Assembly: GCF_003334405.1 (NCBI RefSeq)
Contig: NZ_QOWM01000004.1
Strand: one strand, 5' to 3'
DNA: 64,000 bases
Source: Escherichia coli
GTDB taxonomy: Bacteria > Pseudomonadota > Gammaproteobacteria > Enterobacterales > Enterobacteriaceae
Below, piece by piece: positions 5,261 to 56,717 of the stretch; the first letter of the stretch is position 1, and each line of letters starts with the position of its first letter. The notes beneath the pieces were generated by a model, which did not search any database, had not been told where the DNA came from, and saw nothing but the letters and a program-made list of their open reading frames with translations. The position numbers and the translations under genes are program-made.

Positions 5261-5304
5261 AAGCAGAGTGTGAACTTACTGTTTCACACTCTGCTTTTTT
5301 GTTT
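5261..5304 (+). terminator. Rho-independent terminator of ycaD
   Basis: 14-bp perfect stem aagcagagtgtgaa / ttcacactctgctt followed by tttttgttt. Confidence 0.75.
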
Positions 5305-8530: not shown

Positions 8531-8563
8531 AAAAAAGCGGCAACTCAATAAAGTTGCCGCTTT
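8531..8563 (-). terminator. Rho-independent terminator of pflA (minus-strand polarity)
   Basis: 8-bp stem gcggcaac / gttgccgc (8537..8560); plus-strand A6 at 8531..8536 gives a U-tract on the minus-strand transcript. Confidence 0.6.
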
Positions 8564-20227: not shown

Positions 20228-21901
20228 ATGACTGAATCTTTTGCTCAACTCTTTGAAGAGTCCTTAAAAGAAATCGAAACCCGCCCGGGTTCTATCGTTC
20301 GTGGCGTTGTTGTTGCTATCGACAAAGACGTAGTACTGGTTGACGCTGGTCTGAAATCTGAGTCCGCCATCCCGGCTGAGCAGTTCAAAAACGCCCAGGG
20401 CGAGCTGGAAATCCAGGTAGGTGACGAAGTTGACGTTGCTCTGGACGCAGTAGAAGACGGCTTCGGTGAAACTCTGCTGTCCCGTGAGAAAGCTAAACGT
20501 CACGAAGCCTGGATCACGCTGGAAAAAGCTTACGAAGATGCTGAAACTGTTACCGGTGTTATCAACGGCAAAGTTAAGGGCGGCTTCACTGTTGAGCTGA
20601 ACGGTATTCGTGCGTTCCTGCCAGGTTCTCTGGTAGACGTTCGTCCGGTGCGTGACACTCTGCACCTGGAAGGCAAAGAGCTTGAATTTAAAGTAATCAA
20701 GCTGGATCAGAAGCGCAACAACGTTGTTGTTTCTCGTCGTGCCGTTATCGAATCCGAAAACAGCGCAGAGCGCGATCAGCTGCTGGAAAACCTGCAGGAA
20801 GGCATGGAAGTTAAAGGTATCGTTAAGAACCTCACTGACTACGGTGCATTCGTTGATCTGGGCGGCGTTGACGGCCTGCTGCACATCACTGACATGGCCT
20901 GGAAACGCGTTAAGCATCCGAGCGAAATCGTCAACGTGGGCGACGAAATCACTGTTAAAGTGCTGAAGTTCGACCGCGAACGTACCCGTGTATCCCTGGG
21001 CCTGAAACAGCTGGGCGAAGATCCGTGGGTAGCTATCGCTAAACGTTATCCGGAAGGTACCAAACTGACTGGTCGCGTGACCAACCTGACCGACTACGGC
21101 TGCTTCGTTGAAATCGAAGAAGGCGTTGAAGGCCTGGTACACGTTTCCGAAATGGATTGGACCAACAAAAACATCCACCCGTCCAAAGTTGTTAACGTTG
21201 GCGATGTAGTGGAAGTTATGGTTCTGGATATCGACGAAGAACGTCGTCGTATCTCCCTGGGTCTGAAACAGTGCAAAGCTAACCCGTGGCAGCAGTTCGC
21301 GGAAACCCACAACAAGGGCGACCGTGTTGAAGGTAAAATCAAGTCTATCACTGACTTCGGTATCTTCATCGGCCTGGACGGCGGCATCGACGGCCTGGTT
21401 CACCTGTCTGACATCTCCTGGAACGTTGCAGGCGAAGAAGCAGTTCGTGAATACAAAAAAGGCGACGAAATCGCTGCAGTTGTTCTGCAGGTTGACGCAG
21501 AACGTGAACGTATCTCCCTGGGCGTTAAACAGCTCGCAGAAGATCCGTTCAACAACTGGGTTGCTCTGAACAAGAAAGGCGCTATCGTAACCGGTAAAGT
21601 AACTGCAGTTGACGCTAAAGGCGCAACCGTAGAACTGGCTGACGGCGTTGAAGGTTACCTGCGTGCTTCTGAAGCATCCCGTGACCGCGTTGAAGACGCT
21701 ACCCTGGTTCTGAGCGTTGGCGACGAAGTTGAAGCTAAATTCACCGGCGTTGATCGTAAAAACCGCGCAATCAGCCTGTCTGTTCGTGCGAAAGACGAAG
21801 CTGACGAGAAAGATGCAATCGCAACTGTTAACAAACAGGAAGATGCAAACTTCTCCAACAACGCAATGGCTGAAGCTTTCAAAGCAGCTAAAGGCGAGTA
21901 A
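20228..21901 (+). CDS. rpsA: 30S ribosomal protein S1
   Basis: ORF 557 aa, [49 protein letters not shown]...; repeated S1 domains. Confidence 0.98.
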
Positions 21902-21911
21902 TTCTCTGACT

Positions 21912-21945
21912 CTTCGGGATTTTTATTCCGAAGTTTGTTGAGTTT
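21912..21945 (+). terminator. weak hairpin with U-rich tail after rpsA
   Basis: 6-bp stem cttcgg / ccgaag with 10-nt loop, then tttgttgagttt. Confidence 0.4.
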
Positions 21946-21947
21946 AC

Positions 21948-21976
21948 TTGACAGATTGCAGGTTTCGTCCTGTAAT
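21948..21976 (+). promoter_or_regulatory. candidate sigma70 promoter of ihfB
   Basis: -35 TTGACA (21948..21953), 17-bp spacer, -10 TGTAAT (21971..21976); about 85 bp upstream of the ihfB ATG. Confidence 0.5.
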
Positions 21977-22060
21977 CAAGCACTAAGGGCGGCTACGGCC
22001 GCCCTTAATCAATGCAGCAACAGCAGCCGCTTAATTTGCCTTTAAGGAACCGGAGGAATC

Positions 22061-22345
22061 ATGACCAAGTCAGAATTGATAGAAAGACTTGCCACCCAGC
22101 AATCGCACATTCCCGCCAAGACGGTTGAAGATGCAGTAAAAGAGATGCTGGAGCATATGGCCTCGACTCTTGCGCAGGGCGAGCGTATTGAAATCCGCGG
22201 TTTCGGCAGTTTCTCTTTGCACTACCGCGCACCACGTACCGGACGTAATCCGAAGACTGGCGATAAAGTAGAACTGGAAGGAAAATACGTTCCTCACTTT
22301 AAACCTGGTAAAGAACTGCGCGATCGCGCCAATATTTACGGTTAA
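22061..22345 (+). CDS. ihfB: integration host factor beta subunit
   Basis: ORF 94 aa, [94 protein letters not shown]. Confidence 0.98.
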
Positions 22346-22371
22346 GTTTTTTACTCAAACTTGAACGAGAG

Positions 22372-22397
22372 AAAAGCACCTGTCGGGTGCTTTTTTC
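22372..22397 (+). terminator. Rho-independent terminator of ihfB
   Basis: 9-bp stem aaaagcacc / ggtgctttt with loop tgtcg, T-tract continuing to 22396. Confidence 0.7.
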
Positions 22398-22552
22398 ATT
22401 TCTCTAATCTGGAACTGGAAGCTGCCTCGCAGAGTTTTGAACAGTTTTCACCCTTTCGTTAAATTCTTCTGAATATGCCTCGGGGAACGCAAAATTCCCA
22501 CCAGACAACCGCTCAACAAAGTTGCACACTTTCCATAAACAGGGAGGGGTGC

Positions 22553-51468: not shown

Positions 51469-51498
51469 CCGAATGGCGGCAATAGCGCCGCCATTCGG
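51469..51498. terminator. 12-bp hairpin between the convergent pepN and ssuB genes (shared terminator)
   Basis: Perfect stem ccgaatggcggc / gccgccattcgg with spacer aatagc, 8 nt after the pepN stop and 6 nt before the ssuB stop. Confidence 0.55.
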
Positions 51499-56635: not shown

Positions 56636-56717
56636 TAGAACTCATTAATTGTTTTATTAATTAGTACCCCTCCAGTGTTCTGGAGGGGATATTCATATTT
56701 TTTAAGAGTGACTATTT

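Follow-up and report, generated by a model that had tools for sequence, protein, structure and literature searches.

A U-poor hairpin between rpsA and ihfB at which most rpsA transcripts end and the ihfB message begins in Escherichia coli

Most rpsA transcripts of Escherichia coli have their 3' boundary, and the transcripts initiated at the ihfB promoter (ihfBp) their 5' boundary, at one hairpin located between rpsA and ihfB. About 60-70% of full-length rpsA transcripts end at C22010, directly downstream of this hairpin, while the remainder run on into ihfB. The element is probably a leaky, U-poor terminator or 3'-end hairpin of rpsA, which doubles as the 5'-terminal stem-loop of ihfB mRNA. 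Both RNA ends are already contained in published supplementary tables; we found no study that discusses the hairpin. A literature search returned no dedicated study of the rpsA terminator or of the ihfB leader hairpin with respect to RppH or RNase E, and ihfB appeared there only as a qPCR reference gene.

The analysed stretch of DNA (the window) comprises 64,000 nucleotides and includes the gene order ycaL-cmk-rpsA-ihfB-ycaI-msbA. Window coordinates equal the NC_000913.3 (v3) coordinates minus 941,767 and the U00096.2 (v2) coordinates minus 940,990; the latter relation was confirmed by the position of ihfB, 963051..963335, in the table of Kim et al. (2012). The RefSeq annotation of strain MG1655 (NC_000913.3) places rpsA at 961995..963668 and ihfB at 963828..964112. 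The 201-nt stretch around the hairpin is shared, with an identity of 99% or more, by all 5426 complete E. coli genomes. The features of the locus are listed in Table 1.

Table 1. Features of the rpsA-ihfB intergenic region and its surroundings, in window coordinates.
Feature	Position	Strand	Basis and remarks
rpsA coding sequence (30S protein S1)	20228..21901	+	Open reading frame and MG1655 RefSeq annotation; transcripts end at the hairpin
Weak hairpin with T-rich tail, terminator-like by scan	21912..21933	+	Follows the rpsA stop directly; rpsA 3' end mapped elsewhere
-35 element TTGACA of the ihfB promoter	21948..21953	+	Sequence; invariant in 10 Enterobacteriaceae taxa
-10 element TGTAAT, 17 nt after the -35; G at position 2, C at -13	21971..21976	+	Sequence, alignment
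Transcription start of monocistronic ihfB mRNA	21984..21985	+	Kim et al. (2012), Cappable-seq, SMRT-Cappable-seq
Hairpin: AAGGGCGGC paired with GCCGCCCUU over 9 bp; loop UACG at 21994..21997, of the UNCG type with a C-G closing pair	21985..22006	+	Sequence, fold, covariation
Major RNA 3' end of rpsA and cmk-rpsA transcripts	22010	+	Term-seq 963777(+), SMRT-Cappable-seq
Shine-Dalgarno sequence GGAGG of ihfB	22052..22056	+	Sequence; outside the hairpin, not sequestered (leader fold)
ihfB coding sequence	22061..22345	+	Open reading frame list and MG1655 annotation
Canonical ihfB terminator (comparison)	22369..22397	+	Scan; 3' end 22398; -17.8 kcal/mol

The perfect 9-bp stem with a 4-nt loop, which an earlier sequence-only reading of this DNA had recognised at 21985..22006, is borne out by the sequence. 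The stem is extended to 10 bp by pairing of T21984 with A22007, a pair confined to E. coli and E. albertii. Tetraloops of the type UACG, when closed by a C-G pair, belong to the extra-stable UNCG class. The RNA fold of the 9-bp hairpin with its 3' tail to position 22010 had a free energy of -19.5 kcal/mol (z = -5.2), and that of the 10-bp form -20.9 kcal/mol (z = -5.9); none of 200 shuffled sequences folded as well in either case. With seven G/C pairs and this range of free energies, the stem has the stability expected of an intrinsic terminator and exceeds that of the ihfB terminator. A scan of positions 21000-23000 against Rfam 15 at a permissive threshold revealed no family match, the only overlapping one being PhrS (16.8 bits against a gathering threshold of 37; E = 0.22).

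Since it saw no U-tract, the sequence-only reading had concluded that the hairpin is not a terminator. This is contradicted by the published 3'-end maps, in which a major and apparently bicyclomycin-insensitive end lies at C22010. The Term-seq data of Adams et al. (2021) contain a 3' end at 963777(+), supported in the two growth conditions by 9925 and 5221 reads; its last base, according to the sequence printed for it, is the C of ...GCCGCCCTTAATC, window position 22010. These numbers are comparable to or above those for the ihfB terminator, whose 3' end was located at 964165 by Term-seq (8916 and 2842 reads in the two conditions) and at 964164 by SMRT-Cappable-seq. The intrinsic-terminator score given for 963777 was 14.4, values of at least 3 suggesting intrinsic termination (Adams et al., 2021). 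The Rho score was 1.34 and not significant, but it compares 800-nt windows, of which the downstream one is filled by ihfBp transcription, so that Rho-independence is only weakly tested by this value. The site at 963777 is not discussed in the text of Adams et al. (2021).

In the SMRT-Cappable-seq data, 109 of the 337 reads that start at 961720 end at 963777 and 67 read through, while for the 77 reads starting at 961861 the corresponding numbers are 38 and 15. Both ends carry the label 'novelTTS', i.e. they were not classed as a known terminator or attenuator. Thus, as at an intrinsic terminator, the published maps place an in vivo 3' end a few nucleotides after the stem on transcripts that started upstream. 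C22010 is located 4 nt past the full stem and 6 nt past its G/C core; the corresponding distance from the core is 8 nt in the ihfB terminator. The U-tract falls short of the approximately five or more U in eight positions that mark intrinsic terminators: the sequence following the 10-bp stem, ATCAATGC, has two T in eight positions, while the hairpin tail counted from the G/C core, UUAAUCAAU, has four U in nine.

The consensus terminator scan did not call the rpsA-ihfB hairpin and selected the weak hairpin right after the rpsA stop codon. The 44-nt stretch holding the latter (21902-21945) folded with -14.3 kcal/mol. The two position-sorted excerpts of the Term-seq list show no 3' end between 961969 and 963777, and so none at this weak hairpin. 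In related genera, a hairpin of different sequence occupies the same position upstream of the ihfB -35 element.

The end at 22010 quite likely arises by leaky, factor-independent termination, because the published terminator score and the apparent insensitivity to bicyclomycin coincide with a terminator-like geometry (6 nt past the G/C core, near the 8 nt of the ihfB terminator) and because the homologous stem of Aeromonas, which is followed by a full T-tract, is a canonical terminator. Transcripts of rpsA and cmk would then be released, with some leakage, by the 7-bp G/C core (GGGCGGC/GCCGCCC) together with the imperfect U-tract UUAAUC, the first two U of which would pair with the two A at the stem base. 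After release, the hairpin would shield the 3' end of rpsA mRNA from 3' exonucleases.

The same points argue against a role as a processing barrier only. According to this explanation, transcription from the rpsA promoters passes the hairpin; the resulting longer RNAs, which include ihfB sequence, are either cleaved beyond it (RNase E acting in the A/U-rich sequence AAUCAAUGCAGC would be one possibility) or end elsewhere, and 3' exonucleases then trim them back to the hairpin, which would merely stabilise the 3' end of rpsA mRNA in the manner of a REP or other stem-loop. We regard this as unlikely, but exonucleolytic trimming must be kept in consideration because a real U-tract is missing, the 3' end lies just 4 nt past the full stem and the Rho score is confounded by transcription from ihfBp. 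Two further observations agree with it: the read-through extensions in the SMRT-Cappable-seq data have a median of 149-193 nt and so end inside ihfB, which suggests decay intermediates, and many mapped 3' ends are stated to be processed (Adams et al., 2021).

With regard to the other boundary, the sequence-only reading had placed the hairpin at the extreme 5' end of the ihfB transcript, and three published 5'-end maps agree with this placement. Cappable-seq detected a strong ihfB start at U00096.2 position 962975 (window 21985; score 364.9). The start listed by Kim et al. (2012) is 962974 in v2 coordinates (window 21984; 71 reads), with a printed upstream sequence ending in ...TGTAATCAAGCACT / ...CCTGTAATCAAGCACT. 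An ihfB transcript extending from 963751 to 964164 (v3) was recorded by SMRT-Cappable-seq. Since these starts map to 21984/21985, the monocistronic ihfB mRNA begins at the first base of the stem; they lie upstream of 22006, the position past which, in the sequence-only reading, a start would have left the hairpin out of the message. The spacings given in that reading hold as well, with the hairpin beginning 9 nt after the -10 element at 21971..21976 and its 3' end located 54 nt before the ATG at 22061. As in known 5' stabilisers, where a stable hairpin occurs within about 0-2 nt of the primary 5' end, start and stem coincide at 21984/21985.

The promoter itself is backed by a peak of RpoS holoenzyme in genomic SELEX between rpsA and ihfB, at 962934 in v2 coordinates (window 21944). 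In a study of sigma-38 promoters, ihfBp had a -35 match and was one of only two such promoters with a recognisable -35 element. The sigma-70 consensus scan listed no promoter here, its pattern allowing nothing but A as the second base of the -10 hexamer, which is G in ihfBp; the three mapped starts and the SELEX peak overrule this miss as evidence against the promoter. The ihfB start is rather far from TGTAAT (8-9 nt), and an overlapping TAATCA (21973..21978) lies at the canonical distance, so the hexamer in use may be either of the two.

Cappable-seq also revealed a second strong start at v2 position 963022 (window 22032; score 111.7), with an enrichment equal to that of the main start. It is a T without a recognisable -10 or -35 element and is absent from the SMRT-Cappable-seq and Kim et al. 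(2012) lists. This position is just past the 3' edge of a 9-nt stretch (approximately 22021..22029, in CAGCAACAGCAGCCGC) unique to E. coli and E. albertii. Another feature of the region is the motif AATCAA, which flanks the hairpin on both sides, at 21974..21979 (TGTAATCAAGCAC...) and 22007..22012 (...CCCTTAATCAATGCA); in Citrobacter, the repeat TAATCAATG is present on both sides. AATCAA resembles the WATCAA core of the IHF consensus, and the two copies could represent candidate sites for autoregulation by IHF or the trace of a promoter insertion.

In the predicted fold of the ihfB leader, the hairpin forms an isolated 5' domain. Both RppH and the 5' sensor of RNase E need unpaired 5' nucleotides. 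The space between the rpsA stop codon and the hairpin is occupied by the ihfB promoter in Escherichia and closely related genera, and the message, which starts at the first stem base, has no unpaired 5' nucleotide. By analogy with known stabilisers, such a paired 5' end should hinder RppH and 5'-end-dependent RNase E and thereby lengthen the life of ihfB mRNA. Indirect support comes from Salmonella, in which the half-lives at 7 h were 4.93 min for ihfB mRNA and 2.19 min for ihfA mRNA. When coding regions were swapped there, the message with the ihfB untranslated regions was the longer-lived one (3.38 versus 2.64 min); both untranslated regions were exchanged in this experiment and the effect was modest. 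Judged from the Citrobacter sequence, Salmonella probably carries the same hairpin.

Two other features of the leader were noted. A small CCT...AGG hairpin at 22040..22050, directly 5' of AACCGGAGG, appears to be kept across the Enterobacteriaceae with varying sequence (GCCTTTAAGG, CCTGGACAGG, TCCTTAAAAGGA, CCTGAAAGG) and may affect translation initiation of ihfB. An ATG at 22012, right after the main hairpin, opens a frame of 38 codons (22012..22128), which runs across the ihfB start in another reading frame. As an upstream open reading frame it was rejected for want of a Shine-Dalgarno sequence and because its ATG, though present in Citrobacter werkmanii, is missing from most other aligned genera.

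If the hairpin terminates transcription, polymerases that started at ihfBp would meet the same terminator at +26, and part of their output would perhaps be lost as an RNA of about 26 nt. The predicted 26-nt RNA is outside the range of the present libraries, from which it is excluded by size selection. A promoter-selective terminator is also conceivable, although we consider it distinctly improbable. Here, about two thirds of the polymerases from the rpsA promoters would be stopped, while those from ihfBp would largely bypass the hairpin, either through sigma being still near the RNA exit channel or through NusA not being loaded yet; for the ihfB message, the hairpin would then act as a protective 5' cap only.

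Even less probable is that stabilisation of the ihfB mRNA 5' end is the sole function of the hairpin, with no role for rpsA. The start at the first stem base, an invariant spacing between promoter and hairpin, and the Salmonella stability data are all consistent with such a function. As an exclusive reading, however, it is contradicted by the 3'-end maps, which locate the end of full-length rpsA transcripts 4 nt past the hairpin, and by taxa with a hairpin directly after the rpsA stop codon but no promoter upstream of it.

These taxa emerged from a survey of homologous spacers, which were collected by a scan for IhfB in one genome per species; it yielded 80 loci with 72 distinct rpsA-ihfB spacers. 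The best hairpin was significant (p at most 0.01 against composition-preserving mononucleotide shuffles) in 65 of the 72. In an alignment of 15 taxa, 90% of the cells were paired, as opposed to 44-59% in slid controls, and six of the 10 pairs showed double compensatory changes; none of 500 shuffles reached these values. Loops of the UNCG or GNRA type were found in 11 of 28 distinct four-base loops, against 4.7% expected (binomial p of about 2e-8, which is approximate as the lineages are not independent). The covariation and the loop types therefore indicate selection on an RNA structure and not on a DNA half-site.

The position of the hairpin is more widespread than its sequence. Spacers of 60-90 nt were found in Yersinia, Rahnella, Hafnia, Edwardsiella, and Budvicia, with a U-poor hairpin 5-7 nt after the rpsA stop codon and hence too little space for a promoter in between. 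Stems of another sequence occupy this place in Pantoea, Erwinia, Pectobacterium, Photorhabdus, and Proteus, and the arms have wholly changed with retention of pairing in Pectobacterium, Erwinia, Photorhabdus, and Vibrio. Aeromonas possesses AAAAGGGCGGC-ATTGC-GCCGCCCTTTTTT, i.e. the E. coli core AAGGGCGGC/GCCGCCCTT followed by a full T-tract; canonical terminators also follow rpsA in Vibrio and Pseudoalteromonas. The promoter TTGACA-17-TGTAAT was detected only in Escherichia, Citrobacter, Kluyvera, Pseudocitrobacter, Pseudescherichia, Superficieibacter, and their allies. Ten Enterobacteriaceae taxa all show the same 8 nt between its -10 element and AAGGGCGGC. The sequence upstream of the hairpin differs in Enterobacter sp. 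Ag1 and Mangrovibacter, which have retained the hairpin itself, with UUCG as the loop. The most conserved blocks of the spacer are the hairpin together with the ribosome-binding site.

Since the hairpin is present where no promoter precedes it, it must be older than the ihfB promoter. In the spacers compared, a hairpin follows the rpsA stop codon in most gamma-proteobacteria, so that it is primarily an rpsA 3'-end element; the layout with a promoter in front, which makes the hairpin 5'-terminal on ihfB mRNA, arose later and is specific to one clade.

Some of the other spacers displayed features of their own. In the eight Vibrio loci examined, the spacer measures 166-235 nt (about 200 nt in most), and a conserved promoter-like block TTGTTG-17-TATAAT is located about 40 nt before ihfB, so that the order is terminator then promoter, the reverse of that in E. 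coli. A motif ACGGTAGTT(T/A)AG occurs just after the hairpin, approximately 15-35 nt before the ihfB ATG, in 14 loci from Yersinia, Rahnella, Hafnia, Edwardsiella, Pectobacterium, Photorhabdus, Proteus, and Arsenophonus. Often, a small AGCTGCAAAGCT hairpin with a GCAA loop comes next and abuts the Shine-Dalgarno sequence.

The comparative data also bear on the idea, offered as an alternative in the sequence-only reading, that the palindrome binds a protein. A dimeric regulator bound to an operator that spans +1..+22 of the ihfB promoter, for example in autoregulation or growth-phase control, could account for a perfect palindrome that overlaps the start site, for the high sequence conservation of the GGGCGG core within the Enterobacterales and for the flanking AATCAA motifs. 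Outside the Enterobacteriaceae, however, the arms change completely while pairing is kept, so that no half-site is conserved; enrichment of UNCG and GNRA loops is a property of RNA; an RNA 3' end maps at the foot of the hairpin; and the hairpin also occurs in taxa without a promoter in front of it. In the literature searched, we found no regulator recognising a site of this type. With stems that covary for pairing and loops that are RNA-type tetraloops, the protein-binding palindrome lacks support, and we consider an operator very improbable.

The hairpin is real, conserved, and beyond chance. It was detected in 5426 of 5426 complete E. coli genomes, 5332 of which are at least 99% identical over 36 nt; the other 94 differ by one base in these 36 nt. 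It occurs at a median of one place per complete genome (maximum two), with nothing annotated there. In the window, the hairpin pattern was found once with up to three mismatches allowed, against 0.04 expected by chance. Ten perfect hairpins of at least 9 bp with loops of 3-8 nt are present in the 64-kb window, whereas 1.27 ± 1.06 were expected from dinucleotide shuffles; five of them reach -18 kcal/mol or below (0.03 expected), and the rpsA-ihfB hairpin is the third most stable. Given these numbers, the covariation and the RNA ends mapped on both sides of it, a chance palindrome without function has a negligible probability.

Other perfect hairpins of at least 9 bp in the window are located at 51469..51498, 5261..5296, 45630..45666, 8534..8563, 56667..56688, 45776..45799, 39019..39040, and 44069..44096 and presumably represent terminators. 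The strongest hairpin of the window is CCGAATGGCGGC-AATAGC-GCCGCCATTCGG (-24.1 kcal/mol). Two natural variants of the rpsA-ihfB hairpin, from the strains AMSHJX01 and KH_005, were inspected; they carry the changes G21998A and C21996T. The former breaks the loop-closing C-G pair, and the latter turns the loop UACG into UAUG, as in Superficieibacter. An origin from a REP or mobile element was rejected, as REP sequences occur in many copies and this hairpin is single-copy. Processing by RNase III was likewise rejected, since a 10-bp stem is too short for this enzyme.

The element is ordinary in kind but used twice, one hairpin serving two messages, and is an uncharacterised member of several known kinds. 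Leaky intercistronic intrinsic terminators and attenuators with imperfect U-tracts are known, for example, inside the ribosomal-protein operons of E. coli. The rpsA-ihfB hairpin shares with them the G/C-rich stem, a stable tetraloop, the 3' end a few nucleotides downstream, here apparently insensitive to bicyclomycin, and the partial read-through that couples the downstream gene to the upstream one. It differs from them in that its U-tract is cut to UUAAUC, with the first two U paired, and in that a promoter is located upstream of the hairpin, so that ihfB's own transcripts must pass it.

The hairpin in the 5' untranslated region of ompA was reportedly described by Emory, Bouvet and Belasco in 1992 as a 5'-terminal mRNA stabiliser. 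Like it, the hairpin studied here is stable, leaves 0-1 unpaired nucleotides at the triphosphorylated 5' end and stands apart from the ribosome-binding site. Unlike it, this one is a pre-existing, probable terminator of the upstream gene, which became 5'-terminal once a promoter arose in front, and a stabilising role is suggested by analogy. Stem-loops at 3' ends and REP elements, such as the malE-malF REP, block 3' exonucleases. As in malE-malF, the stable 3' end of an upstream message coincides with a G/C-rich intergenic hairpin that lacks a U-tract; unlike REP, ours is single-copy in the E. coli genome, lacks the REP consensus and is orthologous by position across gamma-proteobacteria. The Vibrio locus has the same succession of rpsA, hairpin, and ihfB, but there the hairpin possesses a full T-tract and the TTGTTG-17-TATAAT promoter lies about 130 nt downstream without overlap. 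The Vibrio ihfB mRNA, unlike that of E. coli, does not start with a hairpin.

These findings have consequences for terminator prediction. The scan based on sequence alone picks the wrong hairpin, namely the weak one with a U-tract at 21912, while the real 3' end is carried by a U-poor G/C hairpin. The layout with a promoter before the terminator also offers a natural system for comparing the action of a terminator on polymerases that started 26 nt and 2 kb upstream.

IhfB and ribosomal protein S1 are both abundant proteins linked to growth rate. The hairpin sets the share of ihfB expression that is coupled to rpsA, with about one third read-through, as opposed to the share driven by the gene's own stationary-phase promoter. 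The excess of IhfB over IhfA reported in Salmonella rests on a longer-lived ihfB mRNA, and the hairpin probably contributes to this greater stability. Should the promoter-selective mode of action prove true, the same 22 nt would set a growth-phase switch between rpsA-coupled and autonomous, sigma-S-driven synthesis of IhfB.
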